NCBI GenBank assembly: GCA_905178155.1
Contig: CAJINV010000002.1
Coordinates: 1,215,809-1,279,808, forward strand
Reading direction: 5' to 3'
DNA length: 64,000 nucleotides
Origin: Amoebophrya sp. A120
Taxonomy: Eukaryota; Protista; Dinoflagellata
Within the stretch, counting starts at the first letter, position 1. Each line of letters begins with the position of its first letter. The translations under genes were made by a program, and so were the position numbers. The notes under the pieces were generated by a model. That model was given only the letters and a program-made list of their open reading frames with translations. It was not told the DNA's origin and did no database searches. Below are positions 1-64,000 of the stretch, one piece after another.

Positions 1-1238
1 TCTGTTTGAATCTTTGTCATGCGGAACACGGAATAAAAGTAAAACATAATAAACGATTCTTACGTACGTATTCAGTACCTTCTCCTGCATCAGATCGTGG
101 ATTTCATTAATCCGCATCTCCACTGCCTTTTCCCGCTGCAGAATCGAGTCCTTTTATCAAATGTAAAACTGTCTGGGTCTGAAAGAGTCATGCTGTTTTT
201 GCATGACACAGAAGGTTTTGCATGGAAGCTCTAGCGTCACAGGTTTCGAGAAGCTTCCGCAATGCCGAGCCCGCATGAGAAATCCCCCATGTTGGTGACA
301 GCAAGTGGGCAGCTTTTGCTACCTATGCATGAGAGATTTTTCTGTGTCGTAAAATGCGCATCACAAGTTCGGATCCTTCCAGACCCAGACGCTTTTGCAT
401 TTGATACCTTTGTCGCCCCGACAATGTCCTCGGACACGAAAACTTGTTCCAGGTCTGAGAAAACCTTCCGTACGTAACTCCGGATTTCGTTCAACACAGG
501 ACTGCTACTCGCTGGGATTTTTGATTTGGCAAACAATTCTTCGGCGTGGTCGTCTCTTTCCTGAACTTCATTGTCCAATTCCTCATACCAATGCTTCAGC
601 TTCTCCGTCACTTCATACAGCTGCTCGATTTCTCTTTCGTGCTTCACTTGCAAGTCCAGCCGTTTTTTGTTCTCCTGCTTCTCGATTTGGTCGACAAAAT
701 TCTCCGTTTTCTGTAGCAGCTTTGTGCAGGTTTGCAGGATGTTCGTGTGGTCCGTGGTGATCGGGATCTTTGCGCCACTGTTGAAAGGCTGTTGTCCGGA
801 CGTTGCGCCGGCCTGCTTCCCGCCTTTGATATTACTGCTTCCTCCAAAGGCACGCGAAGAGGAGGATGTGCCAGCTTGTCCACCGGTGCTGTTTCTGGTG
901 CTGGTCCGCGTTTTCCTTTCCATCTCCAGCAACTGATCTTCTTCCTGTTTCCTCTTTTCCAAAATCGTCCTGCAGCGGTTCAAGTCCGACCGGAGCTGCT
1001 CGAAGGCAGTTTTCTCCTCCTGTTGGCCGGGATTGAGCAAATCGTGCAGCATGTTCTCTCTCTGCGTTGGCTTGATCCGGGCAGTAGTACCGTCGAACGC
1101 TTTTTCTTTCTGCTGGAGTAGCCTTTCCTGGTCCTCGATTTTCTGCCTTTTTTGGATTCGGTTGAGAAGACGGCTCTTGGCCTCGGCGTGGAGGGGGTTG
1201 GGAGGGGGAGGAGCTCCCGGGGCTGGTGACGAGGACAT
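1..1238 (-). CDS. Coiled-coil protein of unknown function; spliced, 3' end runs off the window
   Basis: ORF from ATG at 1238 (MSSSPAPG). Removing element 155-406 plus one CCTTT gives in-frame ATK-DSILQREKAVEMRINEIHDLMQEK. Probable GT donor near 78. Confidence 0.75.
155..406. mobile_element. Introner, family A (TIR tatcaaatgYaaaWatgtctgggtctggaa)
   Basis: TIRs at both ends; 5-bp direct repeat (DR) ccttt; can be read as GT-AG on the minus strand. Confidence 0.9.
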
Positions 1239-3615
1239 GGTGGGCGAGGATAGAAGTGTAGAGACGAGATGGAGGTGTTTCTAGATCTGGTCTCAAAAGG
1301 TTTATTTTTTCATACTTACAGCATAATGTTTAGGCTTTCCACTGAACATCGATGACGATGTAAAAAAACGCAGCAGACTGATAGTAGACACAACTGCTAA
1401 GGCGAAAGAGGTTCTTGACGACGCGGTTGTCCTCTCGTACAATTTCATTCTACCGAAGTAGTAGTTGCTGGCTCGTTCTTACGCTCCCCTCATCATGCCT
1501 CCACGATTTTGATTTTCTTCAAAACGACAGGCCGCATTCGACGTCAACGACGCGCCTCATCTCAGCACTCTGAATCACAACATGTCTCTCGTTTCGGAAG
1601 ATTGTTACGACAAGCTGCTGCTGAAGAAGAAGAAGAAGACCCACATGATCTATCATACCTGGTACTACTAGCGAGTCAAGAAGCAAAACGATGCTGAGGC
1701 GAAGTCGAACATCTTCAAACACAGTTTTCCAACTTTTTCCAGTTACGAAGCGGCCCAAGGTTTCCGGACAGGTCGCGGGCCTGCTTCTCCAACGCAGCTG
1801 GCCACCGGGCGGAGCAAAAAATAGTGCGTCTCTTTTTCAGATATCAAGTGGGCCAAACCGCAAAAATGCTCTTTTTTCACCTTCTCCCGCTTGGTTTCTG
1901 CCATTTTTGCGACATTTTTGACCTCCTGGCCATTTTCCCATCTGGTCCGCTTTTTTTTCCTTCTCCCGCTTCATTTCTGGCCATTTCCCTGACCTTCACG
2001 CCTCCCGGCGGTTGCCCTATATGGTAACTGCAACTGCCTTCGCGCTGCGTTTGCTAAGCAATATCGCAAGCGCGCAGAGCGCGCGCGCCGGCTTCGCGCG
2101 CGCGCACGCATTTGGTTACCAGATAAAGCCATTCCCATTTTCATCTCTTTCAGTTTGTGCGCTAGTACAACTTGAGATAGTGGATGTAACATGATATTGA
2201 TGGGCCGTACAAGTCAATCAAAGGAGTACAACTTCACAGAGTGAATGCAACATATTGATGGGCCGTGATTAAAGGGAAAGAATCTCATCTTGCTATAAGT
2301 TCCGCAAACGAAAACGACAGACCATGACTTGGTGCTGCAAGAAATCGGCGAACATGTTGAGTGCAGCTGCCGGTACGCACAAGGTAGTAGTTCTTGCGAG
2401 AAGTCTTGCATTCTTTTGTAGTTCTTCTTCTTGCCGAGCTGATCGTGGCTCTTCTTCAACAAAATTCAAATTGCGTATGGTACAGCGTGTTCAGATCCGT
2501 GCTTTGTACATCGACGATATGATCTTCGCACCTGCTCGTTCATTTATTCTTCCTGGATACAGTATTCTATGGAAGTTTTTGTTTTTCTCTTTCAACAAGT
2601 CGTGGTGCTTGTGGTTGTGCTATGATCAACAATAAACAATAAAGCAGCAAGATGCAGAAGGCCACAACATCAACATTGCTCAGCTGTTTCTGCTATTGCG
2701 TCCTCCGCAGCTCGCGCTAGAGAGCGAATAAATTTCTACCTGTCAAACCAGTTTAACTATTTCGAAGACGCTTTGCTAAAGTAGATTCAAGACCTCCGTC
2801 AAGGTGAGATACAATGACAATAAGTAAGTAACAGTGGATGATAACAACTTTTAGAGACTTTATTCACAAGAACTTTCGGCGCAGAGCACTAGACACGACA
2901 AGCGCGCACAGCACTCCGTCCGGTGCTCGTCGAGTAACGAAAACGATTATAACGATCCTGAAAGCACAAGAACGATCTTCTTAAAACTTGTTGTACAAAT
3001 TCAAATTCAAATTATGCGACGAAAAGTATAGTGAAACTGTAACTGTAGCAGTAGCTGCGCGAAGGCACGAATTGATTAGGTAGGTACATTCTGCTGGTTC
3101 TGCTTTGATTTGGTTACGATATCTTTACCTTCATGGAAACCGCCTTGATATACGAAAAAATGATCTGCAAGATGTAAAATAGCGACGATAACAAATATTA
3201 AAACGACCGCTGTACAAAAATCAAGTCGGTCTCGATAATTTTGATTTTTACCGACTTGTGCAACAGCGTCTTTTTCTTTGGTAAAATTCATGGAATAAGA
3301 ATACCAGTGAGGTTGGTGTATAAGCAAACTACTTTTTGGAAAAATGTATGAGAGAAAATCTGCGTCGATAGAATAGGTCTCGAGGAGGTACTAGCTGATG
3401 ATAATTTACATTTGCTCAAGTGTGTTTCTTCAAAGAGTTACTGTTTGACGTCTGTCTCCTCTTGAAAAACTTAACTCTTGTGTGCTCCTCCGTGAAACTT
3501 CTACAGGAAGTACTAGGGGACCCACTACAACGGTCTGCTCAAGCTGACAGCACGGAGTTGCTGTTATCCATCGTGTTCATGATCTTCAACATCCCAAGAG
3601 CTTTAAGTGATGAGG

Positions 3616-6600
3616 TCAAATCCGGTCCGTGACCCGGACGGCTTTCTTGCTCCTGACCGGCGAAGAGTGGCGGGGCTCCAACTCGGGTCCCCCAGCAGGA
3701 TGAACCGTTGATGCGGTAGTGCTGTTTCTCATGCTGCTATTCTTATTTGCACTGTTCCTGCTGTTTGGTACTACAGCTTCTCCGTTTTGTACTTTGTTCT
3801 TCCCTGTCGTTCCGCTGTTTTGCTTATTCGGAGAGGCCGCACTCGAGGCTTTATTGGAGTGAGCACTGTTTCTAATTGTACTAGTACCTGAAGACTTGTT
3901 GGGATGATCCGTTCTGCTTTTACCGTCTTTGGCCGTTGTTGACACTCCCTGCTGGTGCTCTCCACTAGCGGTTTTTTTGTTCACCCTGCCACATACATCT
4001 GCGACTCCCGATGTAACTACCAACTGTGGTGCTTTCAGCTGAGACGAATAATTTGTCCCGTTCGCCCCGGCAGTTTTTCCGGCATGATGCTGCTGGGGAA
4101 CGAAGTTGTCGAAAAGATCTTGTTATGAACTGCAAAAGTATCGTACTCGTATCAATTTCAATGCATTACAAAATTCCTCAGCATGAGAAAGAAAATTTGC
4201 AATGCGGATTTACCTTGAGAAAAAAATTTGTAAATGCACGATTGCCATACGAGTACGATACTTTTGCACAGGATACTTGTTCCCTGCTGTCGTCTTCACT
4301 TTCCGAGAAAGCCACGCGGGCCGCCGGGTCAAAGGCTATCCTGTGCAAAAGTATCGCAATCGTACTCGTATTGCTATCATGCATTACAAATCTTTTTCCC
4401 TAAGGCCAATCAGCATTACAAATTTTATTTCTCACGCTGAGGAAATTTGTAATGCATCTATACGAGTACGATACTTTTGCACTGCATAAAGGCTTTTCGC
4501 CGCCGATTTTTCGACATGGCCCTGTCGATTCTCCTCCCGATCGCTCTTTTTTCCCTTTGCTTCTGCAGATACGAGGGCGACCGCGACAAATTCGGGGAAG
4601 GTGACCGAGAGGGGACCGATCTACTTCCGTTTTGACCGTAGTTCATCGTCCTGGCCCCCGCTGCTCTTCGATGGTAGTTGTACCCCGAAGCATGTTCTGT
4701 CGCTCCAGAAGTTCTGCTTCTTGGTCCCGCCGAGTGTTGCGGTTGTGAAGATGAAAACGGTCGTGTTCTGTTTTTGTTTTTTCCGAGTTCGTCCCGTAAG
4801 GATATACCAATGGTCCGCTCCTATCAAATGCAAAGATGTCAGGAGGGTCTGGAAGAGTGCAAGATTTGTCATGCATCTCGCGGACCAGGCGCACGGTCTG
4901 GAATGCACGCAAAAGCAAGACAAAGTTCGCCAGACCTTCCTCAAGCCTATTCCGCATGACAAGTCCGCTATTTGCATTTGCCTAGCGAGAATCGCGCATC
5001 TTTTGGCGTTCATGCAACACAGGTTTTTTTCTGATCGAGACTTCGCATGACAAGCTGCATTCCTCCCGAACCAGATGACATATTCGCAATGCATAGTTTC
5101 GGCGGCGGCGGCGGTGGTTCGATCATCGATGCCGAGAGGGATGTTGAGCTGGAGGATAAACTGCGACTCGTGCCGGAGAGACTCGCTTTCGATCTCCCGA
5201 ACGCATCTTCTGGGTAAAACATCATGGAAGAACTCAGCTCGTCCTTGTGAATGTCGCTATTCGAATGGAAAGTCGTTCCGCCCTTCTGCTCCTTCTCCTC
5301 CCGCTTCAGGAACTTGTCCTCCTCCGCCTCAAATCTGGACAGCCGGTGCATCGACCTCCCCTTGCCCGTGCCCGGCGACCCCGGCTCGTGCGACGGGCTG
5401 GACTTCTTCTGCCGCCTCGCCGATTTCCCCGTTGCGGTTAACGATTTCGTATGCATTGCAAAAGTATCGCACTGGCACTCGTATAAATGCATTACAAATT
5501 TCCTCAGCATGAGAGATAAAAATTGTAATGCGGATTTGCCTTAAAAAAAGGATTTGTAATGCATGATTGCAATACGAGTGCGATACTTTTGCTTAGGATA
5601 TTTCGGCGCCCGCGGCGGAAAATTGTCTTCGTCGATAAATTCGCCTTTCAGTTCCCGCAGTTCCTTTGCCCGTTCCTCCTTCATGAGTTTGATCAGTTGG
5701 TGTTCCCGTTTCTTCAAACTCCTTTCCTTTTTCGCCTCTTCCTTCTCGATCTCCTTTTCCTTCTATGAAAGTGCACAGCCCCCCCTCTCCCTCATTTGTC
5801 TTGCAGGAACAGCAATACAAGCGTCAGCAAGAATACAGGTTTTGCATGACAAATTTCGACTACAGGAGCGTAGTGCTATTTGGGTAGTTGCCACAACTTG
5901 TCATGCATAATTGTGACAGGAGGCAATGCGTACAGTAGGTATTTTGCATGAGAAATGAGAACGAGGGGGAGTTGTGCACTGTCATACCTTCTTCGGATCG
6001 TACCTGATTTTCCCGTTCGACGCGATTTGCAGCGCGATACCAAGTATCCACTGCAAAAATGTCTGGGTCTGGAAAGTTGTGATGCAAGGAAGGGAATACG
6101 AATAGTGGGCACACTGTAATGCGCTGCCCAGCATGACAAGTTTTTCCGTGGTTCACAATGAGAGTTGCGTACTCCGCATGAGAAACTGTGTTTTTGCATG
6201 ACAGGTAAGAGGAGCTCTTTGCGGGCAAGCAATACAGAGTTGAGAGTCATGCCAGACTAGCATGACAAATTTTCCAGACCCAGACATATTTGCATTTGAT
6301 ACCGAGTTTGTTCGATGACAGCTTCTCTCGCTCGTCCGCTTCCAGAAAATGCAGCAACGGGCTGCCTATCCATTCCAAATGTGTCTGGGTCTGGAAGAAA
6401 ATGCAAGTTTGCCATGCCTGTCTCGCATGACTCTTGAACCTGCAATGCGTGAGCAGCATCAGATTCAGAGCCTCTACTTGCCCGTCATGCAAAAATGTAG
6501 TTTGTCATGCGGAAAGGGAAAGAACACAAAGGAGCTGAGAAACTTGTCATGCGTGGCTGCCGATTTTTACAGTGTCCCCCCCATTCATAAAATAGCATCA

Positions 6601-9600
6601 CAAGTTTCCAGACCCAGACATATTTGCAATGCATACTGCCGCTCGCTTCGATACTGCTGTACAAAACCAAATCCCCGCTCGTTCGGCCCGCACGAACGGA
6701 ATGGAGCCCGGACAAGTGGTTGTGTTGCTGCGTCGCGGGAACTTCGTCGTTCCACTCCTTCAGTTTGCTGGTGTCATGCACGTCGTTTCCCATCATCATT
6801 GTCGGGTGGGACATCGTCAACTGCGGATCGGCGTGGGCGAGCATTCCGTGCGCGTCGTCTTCGTCCGTGGGCGACCACGGCTTCATCAATTTTTCCGCTG
6901 GATATCAAAAGGAAAAATCCCCCCTCCCCATATCGAAAACGAAATTTGTGATACTGTATTTAACTACACAAATCGACTTGTCATGCTAGAAGGCCAAGAG
7001 CCGCAGTTTTGGCCTCGTCTGCAGGCACTTTGTCATGCTGTTTCCCACTTTCAGCTGCCTCCTGTTATGCTGAAGACGCAAAGGCTTATTCCCACGCCAA
7101 CCAGCACTACAGTCCGCATCTTTTCCCTTCTAGCATGACAAAGCTGATTTGTGACCACAAATCTGCATCACAGATTTCCGTTTTGATATGGGGAGGGGGG
7201 ATTTTTCCTCACAATACTGGACTTGGGGTGATCATGGGGTCGAACAGAATTCTCTCCCCCGCGTTTTCCCGCCGGTTGCTGTAGTGAAAAATGTCTTTCG
7301 CCACGTGGTCCCGCGGGGTCAAGCCCCGCCACGCCGGGATAGTATCGTGCTCAAACGTGCCCTTCTGCATGATCCGGTGGTCATGGGCTTTATGCATTGC
7401 AAAAGTATCATACTAAGATAAATCGCATGACAAATTTTATCAGGAAGAAAAGTGGAATTTGTAATGCAGATTTGGGTAGGAAACCAGATTTGTCATGCAT
7501 ACCTGCAATTCACACGAGTACGATACTTTTGCACAGGATAGGCTTGTCTTCGGTGCAACAGCCGCGTCGGGCTCATGTCGGCCTCCTGTTTCTTGTTCTT
7601 CCCCGGGTATGGACGCGTCAGGTTTGAAATCAGCAAAGTGGAAATGATTTGTCATGCATGAAATGCATGACGCGACTTCCGTGTGTTGCAGAGCAGGCAA
7701 GTGAGGCCGATTGTAAGCCTGTTTGGGGGTAGAGCTTGAGCTGCTGAAGTAGCATGAGAAAATCGGTCCTCTTTGCCTAAACAGCATGACAAACTGGATT
7801 GCGGTAACGCCGGAATTTGTCATGCGCCAATTGGAAACTGTGGGTCCAACTGGTATAGATTTTATGCATCACAAATTAATTTCAACTTTGTTAATTTCAA
7901 TCCTGACACTCCCATACCGGGCCGGAGTAGGTTAGGGTGCCGGGTTTGCTGTCTCCGGCATAGTCCAACCGGCCGGGGTCCGAGACGAAAGGGGCGGTTT
8001 ATTGTGAGGAAAAACGTCCCCACACCAGAATCAAGGTGGGAAATCTGCTAGACAAATCTGTCAGCTTTTGCTGTTGCGCATGACAAGTTTGGCATTTCGT
8101 AGTGCAATCCTGTTTAGCTTGTTCAGCAGCATCACAGATCTAGCACATCATGCTGATTCTAGCATCACAAATCCGAAACCACGACTAGGAACTCCTTCTC
8201 ATGGGTCTCCGCATGGGAAACATTTTCACCAGCATGCAGATTTGCATTACAACTCTGGGGTGGGAAGGTTTTTACAAATGATACGGTTTGAAACCGGTTC
8301 ACGCGATCCTGGTCCTCTTCGGGGCCAAGCTGGTACGCGGGTTTGTTGCCCTGAGGATGGTGGAACATGACATGAGGTTTTGCTCCTTTTGTATCATGTG
8401 ACAGTGACGCCCACGTCGTTTGGATTTTGCAGTTCTTAAACTTGTCATGCACGGTCACGCAAAACAAATCAAGCCTGTCATGCACGGTCACACATCAAAT
8501 ACTGTACCTGTCCCGTTCCCACCGAGCTCGACAACCCGCCGGGAAGAGTATCAACCGTTAAAATGTCTGGGTCTAGAAGATTCTGAGACTTGTCATGCAC
8601 GTGTTGCATGAGCCATGATGTCTGTGATGCAAGCCCTAGCATCACAGATATTTTGAGGGCTTCTTGATCCTTATTCGGCATGACAAATGCCCTCCCCGCG
8701 TAGCAAAAAATGCGTTCCCCTTGCTTCTCATGCAATACAGATTTTTTTGGAATCCAAATGCAGCATCACAAGCTGCATTCTTCCAGACCCAGACACTTTT
8801 GCATTTGATAAAGAGTGTGTGGGTGCAAGATCAACAGCTGCGATTCGATCATTCTCGTGAACATTAACGCGTTTTGCAAAATCAATTGCAACTCCAATTT
8901 CATGGACAACGGCATGAACTTGATGAAGCTGATCGCGTTATCCTGAGGAAACACGTCCACGCCCCAGAGTTGCCATGCAAATGTGCAATGACAGGAGCAT
9001 TTGTAATGCGCGTCTCCATGAGTAAAGGCATTTTCAGTCGCGTTTTGGCATTTGTCATGCATACCCGACTGCACCACATCGAAAACCTTTGCACCGTCGC
9101 CGCAAGCAGCTACGGCCGCAGGAGATTGGCATTTGTCATGCTGTAAACAGGATGAGAAAGCACCTTTGTCATGCAGCTTCCCTTGTTAATCACCACTACA
9201 CTGCAGATGGAAACTTGTCATGCACAACTCCCAGCAATTGAGGATTTGTGTTGCAGATTTACCAACGAACTTGACTATGGGGTGGGGACATTTTTGCTCG
9301 GGATACGCGTCCGCCTGCGGAATCAAGTGCCGCTCCCGCATGTCTTGTAAGTTCGACCGCATCATGGAAAAGTACTGGTAGTTCGCATCGTGTTCCGTCA
9401 TCGCTTTCGCCACCTGCTTTCTCGCCATGATCAAGTTACTCGTCCGGAGATTCATGCTGGCCGCGCACGCGAACTCGACCTTCTGCATCAACTCCTCTAA
9501 CTCTTCGACCCCGGGTACTATCGGCACGTGTTTGAATTCCTTCAAACCATGATACAGTCGGTAGTTCATGTGGTCAAACTGCTTCCCCGTTGTCCCCTCC

Positions 9601-12600
9601 ACCTGCTTGTCGAAGAGGAACAGCAAGTGCTTCCACACCCGGACTAAGTCCACCCCGCAGACCGTCGGGGGAAGTAACCCCATGATCTTCACCGCGCCCT
9701 TGTTGCCGCCGTGCAGCTTGTCAAAATATCAAAGTGAAAGAAGCCCACACCGCATACAAAACAGAAACTTTCTGTTGCTGGATTTCTGTACACAGATCAG
9801 AACTGTAATGCACGAAGCGCTTGGAGGCATTTTCTAAGCCTGGTTTGGATTGCAAAAGGCTAGCGGTTAGGCATGGCAGACCGCTTTGCAGGAGGCAAAA
9901 GCGCATGACAGATTGGCCGTGGAATGCTCCCAATGGCTCCAACTTGCCCACTAGGCAAGACAGCCCCGATTTGTGATCACAAATCAGCATCACAAATTTC
10001 CATTGCAAGTATGGGGAGGGGGGACTTCTCCTTGCAATACAAAATCGGCCGTGTTCCGGCTGTAGACCGGCGTTTCGAGCAGCATGCTCATGACTTCCGA
10101 TTCCGTGACGAAATCTGGGTTCGGGGATTTCCCTCCTTTGGTAGTTTGGTTCGCCAGAGAGACCACCTTCAGTAGGTGTTGTTCGAAATGCTTCTGGATC
10201 ACCTCCCGCCCGATAACGATCAACACGGAGAGAATCATGTTTGCGGAGAAAATGTCGTAGTTGAAGGGCTCGATGTTTAAGACCGCGCCGTACCGAAGTC
10301 TGACCTCTTTCACCACATCCTCTAACAGCTCCGCGTCCAAGAGTAAAGCGGTCACTTCATCCGAAACGATGTCCAAGACGCCCCTGATCTATGAAAGTGT
10401 CAGAATCGAAATATAACAAAATTAAAAAATTTGTGATGCACAGAATCGATGTCAGTTGGAGCCTCAGTTTCCAAGTGGCGCATGACAAATTTCGGGAGTA
10501 CCCCAATCAAGTCTGTCATGCTGTTTGGGAACAGAAGACTCCTCCTGTAATGCTACTCTGGCAGCACATTGTATACCCCTAAACAGGCTTACGATCGGTC
10601 TCATTTGCCTGCTCCCCAATACAGGCCATCAGTGCCCTACATTTTATGCATCACAAATTCTTCGATTTTGTCGATTTTGATCCTGACACATCCATACGAT
10701 CGTCCCCCGTAATATCGCCGAATGGTTGTTCGCATACGCGTTTTTCAAAGCTGAGGATAAAGACAGGTGAAAAGCACTGGCCAGTCTGACAATCGCGTCC
10801 GGCCGGTACTTGAACTCGCTCGGGTCCTGGTTCAAATACAATTTCTCCTATGCATTGCAATTATTTCTGGGTCTGGAACGTTGCAACTTGTGATGCGCAT
10901 TTCAGATCAGACAACAATTTGTCTTGCATAAACAGCAAAAGTTGTTTACTTTTGGCCATGGTGAGAGCGGATTTGTATTGCAGAATAGGCATCATGGAGC
11001 TCCCGAAGAACCTGTGATGCTGGTCCCTGCATGCCAGACACTCTGGGTCATGCAAAACCTGCATTACAAACATGATCTGCATTTATCCAGACCCAGACAT
11101 ATTTGCAGTTCATATCTCCCTGCCGTAGTCAATCTGTTTCTCGGCCATGTCTTTCGGCGCACCCTTCCGAAGTATGGAATGCAAAAGCATCGCACTCGTA
11201 TATTAAATGCATTACAAATTTCCTCAGCATGAGAAATAAAATTTGTAATGCGGATTTACCTAAAGAGCAAGATTTGTAAATGCATGTTTGCAATTACTAC
11301 GAGTACGATACTTTTGCACAGGATACGAAGATATTCCACCCAATTCTTCTCCGGCTTTTTCTTCCGGTCTTTTTCGGGTAAAATCCCGGGCTGCCCCTCC
11401 TTTTTCGCGAAGGCGTACACTTGGAGGTTGAAGAGTTTCACCGAGTCTTGATTTTCTTCCTCAGTGAAGATATCGTCGAAGTTCCGGTATGCAGTGCAAA
11501 AGCATTGTGCTCGTACTTCTAATCGTAATCGCATTTACGCATTACAATTTTTTTATTTTTTGTCAAGTTAAATCAGCAGTGCAATTTTTTACTTTTGCAG
11601 TGCATATCCGGTGGATCGCGTAGATCACGGCCTGTTCGTCTTCGAAGAGCATCTCGGAAAACTGCTTGTATATCGCAAGAAAAAACTGTTTCACTGTGAA
11701 CTTGTCATGCAGAAAACGAAACACCAAAGTGTTTGTCTTGCTACACCTGCAACCCAATGGATTTTTAAGCGTGTTTTCCCTTGGGAAACGCGCATGGCAA
11801 ATTTTTTGTGTCATGTGTAGCAAACTTGTGATGTGGATCTTGCAAAACCATCACAGTGAAACAGTTTTTTCGTGGGATATTGTAGTACTTGATCCCAGTC
11901 CGCTCCGCTTCGTTACAGAGCTGCTTCAACAATGGCATGTGATCGGAGGATTTCACGAACTTGCTGTAGGGGAAGAGAAACCGTAAATTTCCGACAAACG
12001 GCTGCAACAAGCTGGACTTCAGCACCGACTTCCTCACGTTGAGCATCATTTCGTGGATGGAAGATAGTTATGCAATGCAAAAGTATCGCACTCGTATAAA
12101 ATGCATTACAAATTCCCTCAGCATGAAAGATAAAATTTGTAATGCTGATTTACCTTCGGAAAAAAATTTGTAATGCATGACTGCAATTACTACGAGTACG
12201 ATACTTTTGCACAGGATAATAGTGGAATCCTCGACCGGTTTTGGATCTTCCGCAGCAGCTTATCCATTGCAAATATGTCTGGGTCTGGAAACTTGTGATG
12301 CAAGTCCGTGAACAGTAAGTGCTCATCTGTAATGCACCGCCAAGCATGACAGGTCTTTTCGTGATTCTGTGCTGCGTATTTCGCATGAGAAACTGCGCGT
12401 TTGCATGGCAGGCACGCGCACGTCTTGGTGGCAACGCAATACAGAGTGCATAGTCATGTTAGACTAGCATGACAAATCTTGCAATCATCCAGACCCAGAC
12501 GTATGTGCATTTGATACAGCTGTCCGTGTTCGTATTCTCTTTGTGTTCGGTACGTTTTGTCGCCCATTCCGTACATGTCCTTTTTCCCCCCTTTCGTGGC

Positions 12601-38042: not shown

Positions 38043-40198
38043 TCACTCGTCTTCGTCTAGCCAAAATCGATTGCTCTTCGCCGCAAGAGCAAGCTCGTCC
38101 GTGCCAATTGTAGATGAAGAAGATGCGCTGTTTGCAGGGGACAATATCGGTGACGACGGTTGATTTTGTGCTCCATCTTCGCTAACATCAAGGCCGCGAA
38201 GCAGGAGCTCGTCCCACTTGCTGCCCTTTCCGAACCCGACTACACTGTTGGTCTTCAGAAACGGCTTCGAAGTAAAATCCGGTTCTTCTCGTGCACGAAC
38301 AGCATAAAGAGTTTCCCCTCCCAGACCGAGAAGTTGTTCTTGTTCTTCGGGCCAAAATTCCCCATCAGAGATTTGTTGCAGCTGCTCCCGATCGGCACTA
38401 CTCCTGCTGCTGAACTCCTCCATCCCGTCGGCCTTCTTCCCGTTGTCCAAAAACGACAAAAAAGTGGTCCACAAAGCGCCGCACGCGCTCGCGAAATACA
38501 CTCGATTTTTCATCGGTAGTTGGTAGGTGATCAAATCCACAAAGTATCAAACGCAAATATGTCTGGGTCTGGAAACTTGTGATGCTGGGTGGCGTATCAC
38601 GAGGAGGCCACAGGTGCTGGCTCAGCATGACAAGTTTCTGAGCTTCTAAGTGTTGCCTATTCTGCATGACAAACTGCGTTTCTGCATGACAGAAAAATGG
38701 CGCGCTTGGGTAACGTGCATGACAGATTTGAGAGTCATGCTAGACAAGCATGACGAACATGCTTCCTTCCAGACCCAGACATATATGCATTTAATACAAA
38801 GCCCCAGAAGACGATGGATTTCTTGCACGCTTCCGGCCACTGGTTGGACAATTTCTCGTCGATTTTGGACTTGCAGGCGTCGGTGAGATGAAAGGGGAAC
38901 TCGTGGTCGAGAAGAAGTGCGGCGTCGAAGGTGGTGTGGTCTGGGGCTGTAGTTCCTGTTGCACTACTTTTCGCTCTACTTCCTTCTTGTCCAGCATTAG
39001 CATTACCGTTCGTACAGAAGTCTTCCACGATGCTCGAATACGTGAAGAAAATCGCCAGGAAAACCGGGTTGACAAGGAATTGCTGTGACAAATTCTTCAA
39101 CACTAACTGCAGCTTCCCGTATTTCAGCAAATTGTTCGTGCCGAACACAATTTCGCTCTTCCAAAACCGCTCCACCACTTCGTAAGCGACCCGGTAATAG
39201 GGTCCGGTCAAACTCGCCCCGACAAAACCCCAACGGAGAGTGCGGGCAAGGTCGAGTTCCTTTTCTGGAGTGATCAGTGTGTTCTTTGCCGGTACGGTAG
39301 CACACACAACCGCTGGCGTTGAGAGAACATCTTCAAGTGGCATCTTCGTAGTTGCAGAGGCAGATGCAGTGGTCAAAGTCGAGCTCGAACAATCTACCGG
39401 CCGCATCATGATGTCTGTACTTCTTTGTGGTGCCCAAACGAGGTGGTCGGCTTGCTTAATCTGTTTGCTCTCACACTCGACGTAGGACTTGGATTTTGAT
39501 TTGCCCTTCCCCCGGCCCTTGTGGCTGACAAGAAAGCACGGATTCGTCGGCAGCACCCGGCTGTAATTGGTACGGTAAACAGTTCCGAAGGATGTTGAGG
39601 GGACGGGAGCGCAACCGGGTGATGGTTGCCCGTCTTTCAGCGCAGGAAGACCGCCTGCGCCCGTCACCTGTGCTAGCCTACTGGATTTTGCAGTTGCACC
39701 AGTGCTAGCTCCTGCTGCTCTTGCTCTTCCTTCATCCCTGGTACTGGTGGAAACAGGAAGGGAAAGTTGCGGTGCGAGTGCGACGGCCGGCGTGTCCGCA
39801 TTGCAGCCGAGCAGGAGTTTTGCGTTTTCTGGATGGTCTTGCAATACACTCAAATATTTCAACTCCCGCTTCTCACACAGCAGCTGGGAAGCGATATCGC
39901 TGCCCGCGGAAAGAGCGCCGTAGGAGAGACCTGCGCGGAGAAGAGAGGACTTTTTGTTCAGCTTTATTCTCGTCACGCCGAGCTTCTTCCCGTTGCATGC
40001 TTGTAGTGGAGTAAAAGTGCCGGTCGTGCTGCTGGAAAACAAGCTGTTACTACAGCAGTCAGAAACTAGGAGCAGAAACGAGAGGAAAACCTTGGCTCTC
40101 TGCAACAGAGCCAAAGCCTTCTGCGAGTGAAAGTCCAAGTCGTACATCTTTTTGAAAAAAAGTGAATGTGCTTTGCGTTTCAAAATTGGGGCAGCCAA
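38043..40198 (-). CDS. Mpv17/PMP22-family membrane protein with one introner intron
   Basis: GALSAGSDIASQ, LDLARTLRWGFVG, QQFLVNPVFLAIFF; splicing out 38545-38796 gives SIVFWGFVDLITYQLPMKNRVYFASACGALWTTFLSFL; start codon uncertain. Confidence 0.85.
38545..38796. mobile_element. Introner, family A
   Basis: TIRs; DR caaag; close relative of 44774-45028. Confidence 0.92.
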
Positions 40199-42117: not shown

Positions 42118-42349
42118 ATTACCGACGCGCGAGCTGTTGTCTCAAAGACAGCAATGACTACCAATTTCAAGGATCTGACCCGGCAGACTTTTCTCAACAG
42201 AAATGACACTGCCAACACGGTCACCAGGAAGTCCTCATGAGAAGACACGGAGGAAGCACAATGCTGTCGGACACACGGCTCACAAGAACGGGTCCCATGA
42301 CCTCGAGATGAACCAACATGCGCGCAACCTCGGCGACAAAAGTATAAAA

Positions 42350-44100: not shown

Positions 44101-44188
44101 ATTTTCAAGCAGATTTCGAAATCAAATTTCCAAGACAATTGGATTAGCTAGACTTGTCGCACTATCCCCCAAAATTCAGAATTCCTCA

Positions 44189-53100: not shown

Positions 53101-55091
53101 CGCGTCCGCGGAGGTAGTGAGGTCATGGCGGTCCTTTTGTCTTCACGCCAAAAAAGACGCAACTTCTCTGCCCACCATGCCATCGTGAGTAATGCTATGC
53201 ACGACGGCACGGCAGTCGCTAAAAATTCCACTCCAGAGCTGGCCTCCATTTGGTTTCGAATTTAAAAACCTTCCCCGCATGCTATGGCCCCGCCAGGGCC
53301 CGCGCCAGGGTCGGACCCTTGGGAGCCCCAAATCGGGCCCATAGCATGCGGATTGGCTTTTTGCTTTTGGCGGGCTTTCTTTTTTTGTTTTTTTTTGGCA
53401 AAATGCTGCATCTTCTGGCCTTCAGTCCGCCTCTGAAGTGGCGGATTTTGGTGGCGTATTTTGCGAGGCCCGAATGTGGGCCAAAATGAGGCCCATACCA
53501 TGCGGATTCGCTGTCTTTTTCGGAGTGCTGCGTTTTGGGCATCCCTTTTTGGGCGCCCCAAACCGCCAGAAACCAAGGCGGTGGGCGCCTCAGAAGGGCG
53601 CCCCTTTTGCCGGCTCCCCTGCGTCGTTTTATCAAGCGGGGATCGATAGTTTTCGACCGGGCTTGTTTGCCGGCAAAGCCCCGCCCGCTTGATAATTGGA
53701 AATTTTTTATGCCCAAAAACACTGCCGGCCGCTTGCAAACTGCCGGTCGTTTTGCGTAATGACTGTCAAAAAGATCGCTAGATTAGAACGTTCGTGACCT
53801 CACTACATACAATTCGCGGTTTCAAGCAGCAGCTCGCCGTCGTGGTTACTACACCATGGCCCAACTACACCTCCTGGTGCACGAGGATCTGCTCCCGGTG
53901 TCGTCCTCGTTCTTGCACTAGATGATGAAAACTGTCGCTTTATTTCTTCCGGTTGATTTGTTTTACTGCCTCGTGCTCTTGGTCTTGGCAGAGCTAGCCG
54001 TTTGCTGCTGTCGAAGTTGCCCAACGACTCGGTGGTCCTCGCAGGAGGTAGTACAGTGAAAACCTTGGTGTGACTTATTGTCGAAGTCGTGCACCTCCTC
54101 GGGGACACCAGCAGTTCTCCTAGCGGAACTCGGTCATCTGGAGCAGCCGTCTATTCTGAGTAAAAACATCCCCACCCCAGAGTCAAGATGGGCGACATCT
54201 CGCAACACAAATCGAGAAGTTTTGGAAGTCAAGCATGACAAGTTCGTCTCTGTATTGTAGTGCAGTTTGGCAAGTACAGCCGCAACACAAATCCATCTGC
54301 TCATCCTGTCTAGAGCATTACAAAGTCTAAAACACGATTGGAGCTGCCTCTCATGGGGATGCACATTACAAATCTTCCTGTGACTGGAAATCTGCATGAC
54401 AACTCTGGGGTGGGGACGTTTCTACTCAGGATACCGTCTTCAAGATGTAGTCGCCGTGGTCCTCGTGGTCGTGCTCGTGCACATGTGCTTCCTGCTGCTG
54501 GTAGAGCACCAGCGGAGGCACGGTAGCTGCTGTTGGGAGTTCTACTTCTTGCTGCTGTGCATGAGAATCTGCATCTGCTCCTGCGCCTCCTGTCGGCATC
54601 GGTGCAGCACTGGACGATGAAGAGAACTGTCGCTGCTTCTGCGGCATTTTTCCTGCAGTTCTTGTACCTCTGCGTGAATAAATGGGTTGTAGCCGTTTGC
54701 TGTAGAAGTTGCCGGCCAACGAGGACCCGTTCACAGGCAGAGTGACCTTGGTGTTGTTCTTACTTATCGCAGAACTACTCCATCTCCTCGAGCTCGACAA
54801 GGACCCCATCATGTTCCCGGAGCTTCTAATACCTGTTTTCATCGCTTTCGTTCCGGTTACCCTATGAATTTTGCGGCTTCGGTGGGTTACAAGTCCTCCT
54901 ACCGGAAGTCGTTCATTTGGAGCCGTCTTCAAGGTGTAGTTCTTGAGCGAACTACATTTCGAGCTACTGCTCCCGCCAGCGGTCACAGTGCCCAGGGGCG
55001 GAAAAAGCTTGGTAGACGGGGCGGAATAGGCTGCACGACTTCGGGGTGTAACAGATATTATGGACATCTTCGACGTTGTAATGACCACCAT
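44189..55091 (-). CDS. Large helical-repeat (HPR/OPR/RAP-like) protein, possibly mitochondrion-targeted, with ~10 introners
   Basis: S/R/K-rich N-terminus (RRWSSSA, RQFSSSS). Repeated amphipathic motifs: DIAQLLYAYGK, DVALTAYSFA, ELGDLLFSYCRL, LFASCLHYYAKLG, QLLFLIRAFTML. Structure near 53140-53860 unresolved; could be two genes. Confidence 0.55.
44464..44707. mobile_element. Introner, family A
   Basis: TIRs; DR ctgct; inverted relative of 12261-12516. Confidence 0.9.
44774..45028. mobile_element. Introner, family A
   Basis: Near-perfect ~30-bp TIRs; DR ccctt. Confidence 0.92.
45235..45468. mobile_element. Introner, family E
   Basis: TIRs; DR cagat. Confidence 0.9.
47753..48012. mobile_element. 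Introner, family A
   Basis: TIRs; DR tgaag. Confidence 0.9.
48973..49143. mobile_element. Introner, family F
   Basis: TIRs; DR gtcag. Confidence 0.85.
49204..49471. mobile_element. Introner, family A
   Basis: TIRs; DR ttttt; close relative of 62846-63107. Confidence 0.9.
49650..49802. mobile_element. Introner, family B
   Basis: TIRs; DR gcgca. Confidence 0.9.
49898..50989. mobile_element. Introner, family C, carrying an ~810-bp nested insertion
   Basis: C TIRs at both ends; body 50736-50989 matches the inverted copy 18181-18449; flanks aaatg/gaata. Confidence 0.85.
49926..50735 (+). mobile_element. Non-autonomous Helitron-like element nested in an introner
   Basis: Inserted between A and T with no TSD; AT-rich 5' end; hairpin gctccggc-gtta-gccggagc (50708-50727) followed by CTGG (CTRR); internal agaggK repeats. 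Confidence 0.65.
52340..52529. mobile_element. Introner, family B (eroded)
   Basis: tatgcattgca...ttttgcagtgcata; flanks ccggg/ccgct. Confidence 0.75.
54152..54433. mobile_element. Introner, family C
   Basis: TIRs; DR ccgtc. Confidence 0.9.
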
Positions 55092-56777: not shown

Positions 56778-59700
56778 TCATGGTGGGACTGCTCGACCTA
56801 GCGCATCTTTATCCACTGCAAATATGTGGTCTGGGTCCTCTGGATGACGAGTGCACAAGTTTGTCATGCAGGTTCTTTTGCGTTACCATAGATACCCAGT
56901 AGAAGGTCTGGCATGCAAGCCATAGCATGACGCGTCTTGTTGAGATGGTGTCATCTCAATGCCGAGTTATACGCATCACATCAAATTCCCTTTATAATTT
57001 CTGGTGCCAAGTTTATTTGGGCCGCACTTGCTGCTCATGCATGACAGACACAGATCAAGATCTTGGTGATGTGTTGTCTGAAATGAATTGCATAAACAAG
57101 TTGCACCCTCGATTATATAATTTCACCTTCTCTGCGCAATTCACCCATAGAGTGAACGCGCGCGCAACCAACGGAAGCGAATGACGTGCAGAAGCGCGTC
57201 GCAGTGATAGTCGCAAGACCTCGAGCGACAGTCACAATGGCAGCCAAGAGAGAACCCGGCCGGCACAGCGAGCTACGGGTAGCAGGCCATGCAAGCCAGG
57301 CTCTCGACCCCCACAGAGCCATGCCCCGGACATAGAGGTGGTCCAAGCCGCGAGGCGCGACTGGGACCGCCGAATATCTTGGGCGGGCTTGCGAGGGGTG
57401 CCGCAAGGGGTCTCGCAACCTCAAGTCGGGTGGGAGGGTGGGAAAAAACGCAAAATCTAGGCGAGCCAAGACAATGCGGTATTTCTGGACAAAGGACAGA
57501 GACCCAGCCGAAGCTGGTCGACACCGGACAGCCAGCCCGGTGTCGGACTGTGCAACCCTCTTGCTTGATCATGTGAACTGATATAATCGCTACGCGTCGC
57601 ATATAATTTCACCTTCTCTGCGCAATTCACCCATAGAGTGAACGCGCGCGCAACCAACGGAAGCTCATGCATGACAGACACAGATCAAGATCTTTGTGAT
57701 GTGTTGTCTGAAAGGAATTCAGCATAACAAGTTGCACCCTCAAAAATTATATCCAGACCCAGACAACATATTTGCAATGCATAACCTTGTTCTGGGATTT
57801 CTTCTTCAAGACCAGGGGTTCCTCGCGAGGCAACGCTAAACCCGACTGCATGCGGTTCGCGAAACTCTTCAAGTATCCTGAGTAAAAACGTACCCACACC
57901 AGAGTTGTAATGCAGATTTGCAAGGACAGGACGACTTGTAATACGCATCCCCATGAGGTCCATTTCTAATCGTGTTTTGGAAGTTGTGATGCTGTGAACA
58001 GGATGAGCAAATGAATCTGTGATGCGGCTGCACTTGCTAACCTGCACTACACTGCATAGTGCAACTTGTCATGCGTGACTCACAAAACTCCTAGGTTTGT
58101 GTTGCAAATCCCCATCCTGACTCTGGTGTGGGGACGTTTTTACTCACGGTATCAAGGCTTTCTCCTTCAAGACTTTGGATAGAAATTTTTCCCACGCTTC
58201 GTGGTTCCACGTCCCTTATCCTGTGCGAAAGAATCTTTATCGTCCAACTACTCGTGGTATTTTAGCTGCAATCATGCATTACAAACCTTTCCACTCTCAA
58301 GCAAATAACTCCGCATTAGCATTTTTCACAAAAACCCATTTTTCCCGTTGAGAAAAATAGTTGTTGTAATGCGAGAATAAATGCAAAGAATACCACTTAT
58401 CCTGTGCAAAAGTATCGTACTCGAACTCGTATAAATGCAAGTCTTGCATTACAAATCTTGTTCCCAAGGCAAATGTGCATTACAAACTTTATTACTCATG
58501 CTAAGGAAATTTGTAATGCATTTATACGAGTACGGTGCTTTTGCAATTCATACCACTCGTAGAAGTACGATAAATTATTTTGCAAAAATGGATATCCATT
58601 CCCATTCGCCTTTCTGGGCGTCATAGTACCAGTGCCAAGCATCGCGATCCTCGACCACCAGGTCGGGAACGGGAGAGACGAACGGGATCTTAGAAGCCGC
58701 TGATAGCCCGCCGACAATCACGGCCCCGGGTTTGAAGAAGGGCTTGCCTTTCTCGATGCCTTCTAGCATTCGTATTGTGAGGAAAAATCCCCCTCCCCAT
58801 ATTGAAAGCGCGCCCTTGTCATGCAGATTTGTGACCACAAATCCTGTCTGTCTTGCAAGAGAGCAAAGTCAGAGATCCCAGATCCGTTATGCAGGCGGTC
58901 TGTGGTGCTGCAAGGCCTACAGGTCGGCAGCCGCCTGCCACGTTAAGCGCCCAGCACCCCTCAGCGCGGCCCCTCTCCAGGCTTTGCATCTACCTGCTGT
59001 CCTCTACTGCAACACAAATCTGATTTGTGAACAGACGAATCAGCATGACAAATTTCCATTTTGATATGGGGAGGGGAGAATTTTCCTTGTGATAATTCGA
59101 CTCCACTCTTCTTGGTTCCACGTCCATTCCCACTCACCTTCTTGTTCATTGAAGTACCAGTGCGAGATATCGCAAGAAAAAACTGTTTCACTGTAAACTT
59201 GTGATGCATAGAACGGAGCGTAAATGTGTTTGTCTTGCAGCTACACATGCAAGACATTGGATTTTTAGCTGTGTTTTCCCTTAGGAAGCACGCATGCCAA
59301 GCTTTCTTTGTCATGTGTAACAAACTTGTAATGCAAAACTTGCAAAATCCTTTATACAGTGAAACAGTTTTTTCTTGCGATACGAGACACCGTCGCCATA
59401 CCTCTTCTCCGCCTCGGGGCATCGACAAAATTTTTTCATTCCCGGAGTACCTGAGCAGCTGCTCACCACCTGCTGGACGAGAGCCTGTTCGCCGGAAGTC
59501 GGAGCAGGTGCACCCGCCGTCGAAGTTTTTTGCTCTTCGAGTTTCCCGACAAGGTCCAAAAACTTTTCTTTTTCCCCGGTGGTCTCCCACGCACTTTTGT
59601 CGTTTTTGAACAACGTCTTCGCCTTCTCGTAGGTGGGGGCGTTTTCGGGCCAAAGCGCAATAGCTTGGTCGTACAAACCCACAATGCCGGGGCTCCGGGG

Positions 59701-62276: not shown

Positions 62277-63710
62277 CTACAATAGTTCGGCGTTAATTTC
62301 ACCAAGCTTTTTTTGCAGCGTATTCGCAATCCTGGCCTCCTCGGCTTCAGCTGTGGCGTGAATTGTGGCTTGCGCGGTTTGAAGATCTGCCTGAATCGTG
62401 GCAAGCTCGGTCTTATCAAATGTAAAAGTGTCTGGGTCTGGAAGGTCGTTGGAGCTTGTGATGCTAACTCTGGACTCTAAAAAAATCTGTATTGCATGAT
62501 GATCAGCAAGAAGAGCCTAGTTTGTGCAGCTAAGGGGGGAGGGCATTTGTCATGCGGATTGGGCATCAGGCAGCCCTGTAAAAATGAAAATCTGCGAAGA
62601 TGCTAAGTCATGCATTGCAGACATCCTGGGCACACATGCAAAACAAGCATGATAAGCCTGGCAAAATTCCAGACCCAGACATTTTTGCATTTGATAGGTC
62701 TCAAGCTCGGCGTCAATCTTGGCAATCTCCGTGCGTAGCGTACGGTCAATACTGGGAAGCTCCGCCCTCAGCCGAGTGTCGATCTCGGCAAGCTCGGCTC
62801 GAAGTCCTTCATCCTCGCACGCTTCCGAGCTCGGTTTGACCGGGTTATCAACTGTAAAAATGTCTGGGTCTGGAAGAATGCAACTTGTCATGCTAAATCT
62901 GAATCATGTAAAAATCTGTGTTGCATGATTACCAAAAGCTGTCCACTTTTGACCTAGTCGAGAGGCAGTTTCTCATGCAGGATAGGCATGATAGAACTCT
63001 CACAGAATCTGTCATGCTCTGTCCTACATGCCAGACCTCATTGGTCATGTAAAATCTGCATGACAAGTCTGGCATTCTTCCAGACCCAGACATTTTTACA
63101 GTTGATACGGGTTCCTCCCCAACAATTCCGCGATCGCATCGTTGCCCTGGGTTTGACACAGTTCCTCAGTCCACCTCATCAGCTTCCGATGCCGTTCCAC
63201 TGGAGTCGCGTTCATGATCTCGTCCCGCGCAGATACGCGTTGCTGCGCGGACTGCCTCTCCTTAGCGGCTCTTTTCTCGGCGTCATGTTTGTCCGAATCG
63301 GCTTGTTTCTTGGCGTCGCGCTTGTCCGAATCGGCTTGTTTCTTGGCGTCGCGCTCGGCCGACGCGGCTGTCTTCTCGGCATCACTCAGGCCTTTCTTCA
63401 AATCCTTCAGACGCTCTTGCTCGGCTGCCTTCGCTAATTTTTCGGCCTCCTTGACAGCATCCAAGCGTTCTTTTTCGGCCGCCTTCGCCGTTTTTTCGGC
63501 CTCCTTGACAGCATTCAAGCGTTCTTTTTCGGCCTCTCTCGCGGCCCTACTGGCCTGTCTCGCGGCTTCGCCACGATCGGCCGTGAACTGCAGTGCATGA
63601 ACCACGCCTGGCGCAGTTGCCGCGAGGGAACTAAACAGGACACTAATGCACGCCGCACCTGCGGTCAGAGACATTTTCATGGTCGTGGATCCGATTTTCA
63701 TCTTTTCCAC
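62277..63710 (-). CDS. Predicted secreted coiled-coil protein with short internal repeats; two introner introns
   Basis: Signal-like N-terminus; AAEKERL.AVKEAEK repeats; splicing gives GRNP-VKPSSE...AELET-ELATIQADLQ...EINAELL*. Confidence 0.8.
62414..62696. mobile_element. Introner, family A
   Basis: TIRs; DR ggtct. Confidence 0.9.
62846..63107. mobile_element. Introner, family A
   Basis: Perfect ~35-bp TIRs; DR cgggt. Confidence 0.93.
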
Positions 63711-63962: not shown

Positions 63963-64000
63963 TATCCTATGTAAAAACGTCCCCACCCCATAGCTGTTAT
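63963..64000. mobile_element. Introner, family C, truncated by window end
   Basis: tatcctatgtaaaaacgtccccacccca. Confidence 0.75.

Follow-up and report, generated by a model that had tools for sequence, protein, structure and literature searches.

Transposon-derived introner elements in a 64,000-nt window of the Amoebophrya sp. A120 genome: excision from RNA and a likely fixed cut register

The stretch of DNA analysed here, a window of 64,000 nucleotides from Amoebophrya sp. A120, raises the question of how genes that are densely interrupted by inverted-repeat elements can yield intact transcripts when hardly any of these elements can be bounded by GT-AG. The catalogue comprises 64 elements (63 outer and 1 nested) with a length of 119-1092 nt (median 252 nt), which together account for 16,406 bp or 26% of the window, and which BLAST comparisons group into 8 clusters and 2 singletons, in agreement with the approximately 65 elements of at least nine terminal inverted repeat (TIR) families counted in a preliminary description. 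Exact TAT...ATA ends are present in 62 of 64 elements, the exceptions being elements 16384 and 57874 (Table 1), and the flanking 5-bp direct repeat is perfect in 49, with one mismatch in 11, two in 3 and three in 1. The earlier statement that all copies have both features was therefore slightly overstated. The repeat length is 5 nt, as 49 repeats are perfect at this length and none at 6-9 nt, and a blind scan for TAT..ATA pairs with at least 11/16 TIR matches detected 45 pairs in the window whose 5-nt repeat is perfect, as compared to 0 in 10 shuffled windows.

The extended end motif TAT-N7-AAA is present on 95 of 128 ends; applied strictly, it fits 53 of the 64 elements (57 if 7-9 nt are allowed), with families D, G and H being the deviating ones. 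Since all 64 elements carry the internal motif GCATNACA, the families probably form one transposon clade and not, as had been proposed, many unrelated sets. Both orientations were encountered in 8 of 9 groups tested, and also within the gene for which removal from RNA was confirmed. By sliding the boundary within the direct repeat, GT-AG termini can be reached in 5/64 elements (155, 5764, 17392, 18498 and 56810), three of them at the register described below; four of these copies had been recognised before, whereas 18498 was missing from that count.

Table 1. Elements and associated features in the window, by gene (register 1/4: intron from 1 nt upstream of TAT to 4 nt downstream of ATA)
Feature	Position	Strand	Context
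Element, family B (TIR with TGTCTGGGTC)	155..406	-	GT-AG at register 1/4; gene 1238->(off window)
23 elements, first half	4124-4275, 4337-4488, 4822-5095, 5450-5600, 5764-5986, 6045-6301, 6367-6635, 6903-7216, 7391-7540, 7608-7916, 8000-8283, 8549-8810	-	One gene, ORF 14690->3619, 1810 aa from M
23 elements, second half	8939-9305, 9727-10039, 10390-10696, 10849-11114, 11173-11325, 11488-11606, 11671-11879, 12069-12218, 12261-12516, 12683-12961, 13046-13199	-	Same 1810-aa ORF 14690->3619
Canonical GT-AG intron, 157 nt	8351..8507	-	Removed in X6 contig; two GCATGACA motifs 33 nt apart inside
13 elements	15070-15219, 15272-15420, 15780-15991, 16028-16272, 16384-16662 (begins TGT), 16727-17031, 17087-17299, 17392-17666, 17718-17990, 18181-18449, 18498-18657, 19732-19943, 20182-20544	-	Predicted 833-aa gene 20673->14906
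Element	24006-24232	-	Probable acidic last exon
Element	24791-25040	-	Inside 469-aa ORF
6 elements	26856-27086, 27549-27694 (3 repeat mismatches), 27968-28231, 29418-29567, 29616-29763, 30154-30303	-	Predicted gene of 327 aa; 4 GT-AG introns predicted
Element, family B	38545..38796	-	Inside 646-aa ORF
9 elements	44464-44707, 44774-45028, 45235-45468, 47753-48012, 48973-49143, 49204-49471, 49650-49802, 49898-50989 (family C with ~810 nt inserted), 52340-52529	-	2013-aa ORF
Element, family C	54152..54433	-	Inside 387-aa ORF
Elements	56810-57783 (internal insertion and duplication), 57874-58151 (ends GTA), 58217-58594, 58398-58552 (nested in 58217-58594, own 5-bp duplication), 58773-59094, 59168-59382	-	562-aa ORF
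Elements	62414-62696, 62846-63107 (36-bp perfect TIR)	-	294-aa ORF
Further family C element, left end, cut by window edge (uncounted)	63963..64000

With respect to their position, nearly all elements reside in minus-strand coding sequence. Removal of each element together with 5 nt (or with 2 or 8 nt) results in minus-strand ORFs of up to 2013 aa that span 61 elements, whereas other offsets give 782-827 aa and the plus strand 498 aa, which bears out the earlier observation that the frame is restored upon removing the element plus one direct repeat. When predicted GT-AG introns are added, 60 of the 63 outer elements lie inside ORFs of at least 250 aa, and one further predicted join raises this number to 62, leaving only element 24006. 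The non-coding share of about 41% of the element-free DNA contains no element, a result whose p-value is inflated by the gene set having partly been drawn using the elements; the preliminary finding of elements confined to minus-strand genes is thus supported. Retention would disrupt the frame in 60 of the 63 outer elements. An apparent zero-length exon between tandem elements 58217 and 58398 was rejected, 58398-58552 being a nested insertion.

Read evidence covers window positions 1-20000, and the junctions in 20001-64000, including those of the nested, the long and most of the imperfect-repeat elements, are predictions. In run X6, which like run X3 is putatively classed as RNA, in line with a removed GT-AG intron and with contigs bounded by the gene, a single contig of 6266 nt corresponds to positions 14317 to 2410 minus 23 elements (with 5 nt each) and minus one GT-AG intron, the lengths agreeing exactly (6266 = 6423 - 157). 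Because this canonical intron is also gone, the contig should represent spliced RNA. The distances between its pieces (917, 41, 1110, 41 and 96) all match the removal of element plus 5 nt, as had been anticipated for the junctions and is now borne out for this one gene, and run X3 is concordant (425 = 425), one of its contig pieces ending at 407 next to the family B element 155..406. Removal from RNA is seen individually for two elements and for the others of the 23 by the exact summed lengths, and just one of the 23 can be GT-AG. The neighbouring 833-aa gene has low RNA depth, with one piece ending at 15774.

The elements are thus excised from RNA and not from DNA. Ciliate internal eliminated sequences (IESs) are likewise TA-bounded, embedded in coding sequence and precisely removed, and excision from DNA had been named as an outcome that would overturn the reading as introns. 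However, contigs of the DNA-like run X1 at about 43x read from the exon straight into the element, so that, in contrast to IESs in somatic DNA, the elements are retained; among the rows listed, these contigs cross exon-element boundaries at single-copy depth, the element bins reach a summed depth of 10^4-10^5, and those contigs that lack the elements also lack the GT-AG intron. An IES-like process is therefore hardly credible as anything more than a rare event. It is also very improbable that the junctions are template-switch artefacts of reverse transcriptase, with the elements staying in the mRNA and being skipped at translation or residing in dead genes. Direct repeats combined with strong structure are a hallmark of such artefacts, and the RNA evidence is cDNA-based both here and in the accessible text of the published accounts, but all 23 elements are missing from a single continuous contig, the homology at the 4822 junction amounts to only 1 nt, retention would break the frame of most copies, and ORFs of 1800-2000 aa are intact after removal.

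Two junctions with imperfect repeats are informative for the exact cut. At 4817..5096 (minus strand; element 4822-5095, two repeat mismatches) piece 4488-4816 is joined directly to piece 5096-5443 in X6, and the X3 piece likewise begins at 5096, so that either 4817-5095 or 4818-5096 is skipped and the intron includes no more than 1 nt upstream of TAT. At 10385..10701 (minus strand; element 10390-10696, repeat mismatched at position 5) both X3 and X6 retain base 10385, in a piece spanning 10040-10385, and the intron must therefore include 1 nt or more upstream of TAT. Taken together with the base composition, these two junctions suggest that the cut register is likely to be fixed, the intron running from 1 nt upstream of TAT to 4 nt downstream of ATA. 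Among the A120 non-canonical motifs, the nine predominant ones listed in Table S4 all start with NT, which agrees with this register. Mismatches at repeat position 5 are also present in elements 18181, 20182 and 49898, and at position 4 in 17087, 27549 and 56810, the last of which reaches GT-AG at register 2. In this register, +2 is T and +3 is A in 63/63 elements, as in U2-type donors, and +1 is G in 28/56 as compared to 16.5 expected after controlling for codon phase (p = 8e-4, borderline when taken over 60 cells). The mirror position is not enriched for G (18 or 14 vs 14.5), and offset +5 is also G-rich (25 vs 16.2). Codon phase as the source of the bias was rejected (phases 25/14/17, p = 0.18, controlled). 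Since the direct repeat makes intron +1 and exon +1 one and the same base, the bias is assignable to either.

At the other end, AG is found in only 8/63 elements, the last four bases being free, and the branch motif CTRAY occurs in 3/63. The motif GCATNACA, which fits UnAy, was rejected as a branch point: it is present 91 times in sense and 110 times in antisense, and its sense copy is missing from 14/63 elements, three of which are RNA-confirmed. Where present, the sense copy lies 39-159 nt from the 3' end in 48/49 elements. As the elements are spliced in either orientation without GT-AG, the signal must therefore lie in their symmetric ends. This sustains one part of the preliminary proposal that paired ends are recognised rather than GT/AG; its second part was too strong, because the cut register also yields GT-AG copies, the TIR provides U at +2 and A at +3, and +1 is biased towards G. 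RNA pairing of the ends as the signal receives no support, as G-U mismatches do not exceed A-C mismatches in transcript sense (26 vs 29), and therefore conservation of the TIR can be explained by transposition alone.

The elements of the window can be described as TIR DNA transposons of the non-autonomous kind, which duplicate 5 bp of their target and are precisely removed from the transcript. They match the introner elements already known from A120, so that the system as such is not new. In the published accounts (Farhat et al. 2021, PMC7789003; Gozashti et al. 2025, PMC12130899), A120 introners are described as hairpin-forming, non-canonical introns of about 240 nt supported by RNA-seq, belonging to many families, lacking an internal transposase and classified as TIR DNA elements of unknown superfamily, with TAT + 7 nt + AAA inverted repeats and 3-5 nt direct repeats at the exon/intron boundary (5 bp in the legend of Fig. 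S19; here 5 nt, with at most one mismatch in 60/64). Nothing separates the window elements from these with respect to TAT-N7-AAA ends, 5-nt repeats, non-GT-AG removal and multi-family hairpins. The A120 paper calls the border variable or unknown and mentions four nucleotides upstream; in the text consulted, neither a 1/4 register was found to be spelled out nor a preference for G at +1, and no mention was found of splicing in both orientations, of GCATNACA as a motif common to all elements or of nesting, some of which figures 3, 4 and S19-S25 may show.

Amongst other systems, the nonconventional introns of euglenids (PMC12501133, PMC11282704) are similar in being MITE-like, with paired ends at a fixed offset, slidable direct repeats and no GT-AG, but their signature N3CDG...CHG N5-6|R differs from N1TAT...ATA N4 found here, Euglena rarely has hybrids with canonical ends, and circles have been shown in euglenids. 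In Fritillaria borealis (bioRxiv 2025.08.15.670264, PMC11282704), TIR/TSD MITEs are also spliced without GT-AG, for which the U2 spliceosome is necessary; there the TIRs have fixed terminal dinucleotides (AG-AC, AG-AT), whereas here both termini derive from the target duplication and are free to vary. As to their origin, IS3EU/GingerRoot and IS481EU transposons (PMC10045372) share TA..TA or TNT..AYA termini (here TAT..ATA in 62/64), short TIRs and non-autonomous derivatives, which fits an integrase-like ORF noted for A120 family 38. Their duplications are usually 6 bp in IS3EU and about 4, 15 or 25 bp in IS481EU, as compared to 5 bp here, with 0/64 elements having 6 bp in register.

How the elements leave the transcript is best explained, with a probability of roughly 0.55, by a relaxed U2-type spliceosome for which the TIR would be an N-UAU donor and the hairpin the point from which the acceptor is measured. 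An element would insert by means of a DDE transposase acting in trans, as suggested by the TIRs, the 5-bp duplication, nesting and random orientation, with ends resembling those of IS3EU/GingerRoot and IS481EU, and would then be taken out of the RNA with 5 nt in the register N|TAT...ATA NNNN|. Either TIR could serve as a donor N-U-A-U-(C/G), much like the GTAY donors in 5/6 of the modelled local canonical introns, while a U-tract at -19 to -15 would come from the opposite TIR, and distance from the hairpin base instead of AG would define the acceptor. The GCATNACA repeats would probably be DNA-level transposase sites marking one clade. In favour of this reading, the cut register coincides with that giving the GT-AG copies, the TIR reads like a normal donor, +1 is biased towards G, the introners of Fritillaria offer a precedent, and A120 is described as retaining most spliceosomal proteins, with no U1 snRNA found in it and U1 present in a strain with canonical introns. 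Against it, half of the donors lack G, there is neither an acceptor signal nor a conserved branch motif, the +1 G may equally be exonic, the Euglena system also prefers a purine at this position, the published annotations of five large A120 families give 26-29% GT donors at boundaries that may be slid, and the same texts report no transposase in A120.

A separate, spliceosome-independent or dedicated machinery as in euglenids, already envisaged in the preliminary description, might alternatively recognise the terminal hairpin, cut 1 nt away on its 5' side and 4 nt away on its 3' side, and ligate the exons. This tentative possibility is in line with function in either orientation, with the missing acceptor and branch signals, with the Euglena system, whose signature has the same geometry and which releases circles, and with the rod-like folds of the elements (median z -5.3; 56/62 below -2; -8.9 for element 10390-10696), in which a 4-nt loop of variable sequence separates a 3-bp TAT/ATA stem from another stem. 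However, it accounts neither for the coincidence of the register with GT-AG, the donor-like TIR and the +1 G bias, nor for the missing excess of G-U over A-C, and 15% of canonical A120 introns bear the same repeats, a continuum missing in Euglena. A bolder version, in which a second non-spliceosomal route of mRNA splicing reads the symmetric code N|TAT-hairpin-ATA NNNN| of one IS3EU/IS481-like clade, convergent with euglenids, and older copies decay to GT-AG introns keeping GCATNACA, is less likely than not. Strong folds might also point to a self-splicing ribozyme, but both orientations work, the shared fold core is only a rod, the lengths vary widely and Rfam gave 0 matches for the elements, which makes a ribozyme most improbable.

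The window thereby supplies a testable signature, with cuts placed 1 nt upstream of TAT and 4 nt downstream of ATA, in either orientation and with no acceptor dinucleotide. If the relaxed spliceosome is responsible, it would choose a 3' splice site without sequence at the site; if not, hairpin-guided mRNA splicing would have had a second independent origin, and either route would account for tens of thousands of harmless transposon-derived introns. No transposase ORF was found in the window, and neither the long inserts nor the GC-rich block had a Pfam match; the shared GCATNACA motif offers a handle on the missing transposase. A literature search with the element motif returned only unrelated primer matches among the best 15 of 759. 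The top named protein match of the window is from Amoebophrya A25, and its G + C content is about 49% as compared to 51% for A120.

The TAT...ATA intron-like elements are a real feature of the window. A blind scan of its whole length for TAT...ATA pairs with at least 11/16 matches in the terminal inverted repeats (TIRs) found 183 pairs, of which 45 are flanked by a 5-nt repeat without mismatch and 11 by a one-mismatch repeat, as compared to 0 and 11, respectively, in ten shuffled windows pooled. Scan, end profile and BLAST together gave a total of 64 elements (16,406 bp), one nested inside another. The preliminary description, according to which all have TAT...ATA ends and a 5-bp repeat, holds for most of them: the ends are exact in 62/64 and deviate in two, and the flanking repeat has no mismatch in 49, one in 11, two in 3 and three in 1, and is thus imperfect in 15. 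TIR pairing (n = 64) is found in 63-64 elements at positions 1-3, in 21-39 at positions 4-7 and in 49-62 at positions 8-14. BLAST grouping yielded eight clusters (sizes 20, 19, 8, 5, 3, 3, 2 and 2) and two singletons, in agreement with the at least nine TIR families proposed before, and the best near-full-length pair, nested pairs left out, is 89% identical. The nested element (58398-58552 within 58217-58594) has its own 5-bp duplication, a twintron-like arrangement that may be removed by one cut or by two. The family C element at 49898-50989 carries an insert of ~810 nt with many GAGAGG direct and inverted repeats, whose 242-aa ORF has no Pfam match, and in the family B element at 56810-57783 internal 80-nt and 64-nt duplications flank a GC-rich insert.

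Deletion of each element plus 5 nt opens minus-strand ORFs of up to 2013 aa crossing 61 elements, in contrast to at most 827 aa with deletion offsets other than 2 mod 3 and 498 aa on the plus strand, which bears out the earlier claim that removing the element and one repeat restores the frame; retention would break it in 60/63. In predicted gene models, 60 of the 63 outer elements fall within ORFs measuring at least 250 aa once five GT-AG introns are modelled, and an 833-aa model takes in two more. The placement of all elements inside minus-strand genes therefore stands for 62/63 and is uncertain for the element starting at 24006. Every modelled gene lies on the minus strand, forming a unidirectional cluster as is typical of dinoflagellates. 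No element is found in non-coding DNA, though this makes up ~41% of the element-free sequence; the GC content is 54% in coding versus 46% in non-coding DNA, and in the accessible literature introners usually show a bias of this kind towards genes and GC. Elements are also absent from three other ORFs and from the RRM (nucleolin-like) gene at 33531-32197 (minus strand), whose best named match is from Amoebophrya A25, in agreement with the introner depletion that the available texts report for translation and ribosome genes.

The elements leave RNA precisely. Four sequencing runs were compared over positions 1-20000, to which the junction evidence is restricted; the raw-read RNA run among them, X9, yielded no matching reads. 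One of them, X6, contains a single contig of 6266 nt spanning 14317 to 2410; this interval minus 23 elements, each with 5 nt, amounts to 6423 nt, and minus the 157-nt GT-AG intron (8507-8351) to exactly 6266 nt, so that the expected removal of exactly element plus 5 nt fits all 23. The intervals between the listed X6 pieces (917, 41, 1110, 41 and 96) all match the prediction, and run X3 is consistent with X6. The RNA label of these two runs, which come from one study, is an automatic guess; however, since the canonical intron is gone too, the contig represents spliced RNA. Elements 4822 and 9727 (named by start coordinate) were seen singly with both flanks, the remaining ones by summed length, where compensating errors are possible, if unlikely.

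With respect to the cut register, the transcript skip at 4822-5095 comprises either 4817-5095 or 4818-5096, so that no more than 1 intronic nt precedes TAT in the transcript sense, while the retained base 10385 at 10390-10696 implies at least 1 nt; a piece ending at 15774 permits up to 3 nt. If a single register holds, the cuts thus lie 1 nt upstream of TAT and 4 nt downstream of ATA, and this register is probably fixed across elements. So aligned (n = 63), T at +2 and A at +3 are invariant (63/63), +1 is G in 30/63, positions -19 to -15 form a T-tract, and no constraint is seen on the last four intron bases. With codon phase controlled, +1 is G in 28/56 versus 16.5 expected (p = 8e-4, uncorrected), with no G enrichment at the palindromic mirror position; offset +5 is likewise G-rich (25 vs 16.2). 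AG ends only 8/63, and the elements have no common acceptor dinucleotide. In the accessible Table S4 of PMC7789003, all nine predominant non-canonical A120 motifs start with NT, as this register predicts; annotated GT donors account for only 26-29% in five large A120 families of a later dataset, among the 19/58 rows listed (PMC12130899).

A transposase may drive the spread of the elements. Their removal from RNA would fall to a relaxed U2 spliceosome, a reading to which we assign a probability of about 55%. It is favoured because the register of the elements coincides with the GT-AG one, the TIR resembles local GTAY donors and G is preferred at +1, and, as far as the available texts go, because canonical introns share the direct repeats (PMC7789003), U1 was not found where the non-canonical introns abound but was found in a canonical-intron strain, and Fritillaria shows the route to be possible (bioRxiv 2025.08.15.670264, PMC11282704). 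Tentatively, a separate euglenid-like machinery might excise the elements instead, given that acceptor and branch signals are missing from them and that their geometry is similar to that of euglenid introns in the accessible text of PMC12501133 and PMC11282704. Minor weight is given to self-splicing, to template switching as the source of the junctions and to excision from the DNA; the latter, raised earlier as IES-like removal, is confronted with run X1, which behaves like DNA and whose ~43x contigs keep the elements, passing from exon into element (e.g., at 4858-5504, 9270-9880 and 9967-10453 among the rows listed).

Removal is independent of element orientation. Both orientations relative to the transcript occur in 8/9 family groups with at least two copies (10/8, 11/8 and 5/3 in the largest), and the RNA-confirmed gene holds both, so that the splice signal resides in the symmetric ends. 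The motif GCATNACA, picked after inspecting the elements, has 201 copies spread over 64/64 elements, versus 9 copies in the remaining 47.6 kb; shuffled elements contain 3.8 on average. Being common to all, the motif speaks against the many unrelated families previously assumed. Neighbouring copies on the same strand are most often 31-33 nt apart (30 gaps), and neither strand is preferred. The motif is best taken for a DNA-binding repeat belonging to a single transposon clade and was rejected as a branch point. Five of the nine outside copies lie within seven modelled canonical introns (1784 nt in total), three of which were found by following GCATNACA matches, which suggests that old element copies decay into GT-AG introns; those bearing GCATGACA are possibly aged elements turned canonical.

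GT-AG introns carrying the motif GCATGACA
Feature	Position	Strand	Remarks
GT-AG intron with GCATGACA	8351-8507	minus	RNA-confirmed; two motif copies at 33-nt spacing, plus a TIR-like stretch
GT-AG intron with GCATGACA	19302-19400	minus	predicted
GT-AG intron with GCATGACA	27788-27907	minus	predicted
GT-AG intron with GCATGACA	1-78	minus	predicted

The system is already known for Amoebophrya A120, and the window adds useful refinements: its elements show each sequence feature described for the A120 introner elements by Farhat et al. (PMC7789003). The accessible text of that study describes inverted repeats with a TAT start, seven variable bases and at least 3 A, direct repeats of 3-5 nt, totals of 29,850 elements and 1954 families, and 65% non-canonical introns; U1 snRNA was not found in A120 and the mechanism was left open. 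According to the available part of Gozashti et al. (PMC12130899), most A120 families seen are TIR DNA elements of unassigned superfamily, one having an integrase-like ORF. TA..TA ends like those in the window are typical of IS3EU/GingerRoot, whereas duplications there are usually 6 bp rather than 5 bp (PMC10045372, in part), so that this superfamily is a lead only. We found no paper in the accessible literature that resolves how the A120 elements are excised, their register or the motif; such work may be contained in figures, in supplements on bioRxiv or in journals behind a subscription.

Among the other features of the window, an element-free ORF at 40870-42141 (minus strand) with a gag-type aspartyl protease match (PF13975, E = 2.5e-6) adjoins a block of 65% GC at 42200-44100 that includes a C-run; together they look retroelement-like, and no LTR was found around them. 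Near two outside-element GCATNACA copies, ACTTACCTGG at 19340-19350 and 23050-23070 (minus strand) resembles the U1 snRNA 5′ end, probably by chance; an Rfam search gave nothing at gathering score. U1 is reported missing in the lineage in the accessible text of PMC7789003. An intergenic repeat of another kind lies at ~1725-2100 (summed DNA depth >1000), and one similar in style, by look alone, at ~53250-53800. The predicted canonical intron at 28269-29293 (1025 nt) contains three tandem copies of a ~250-nt unit.
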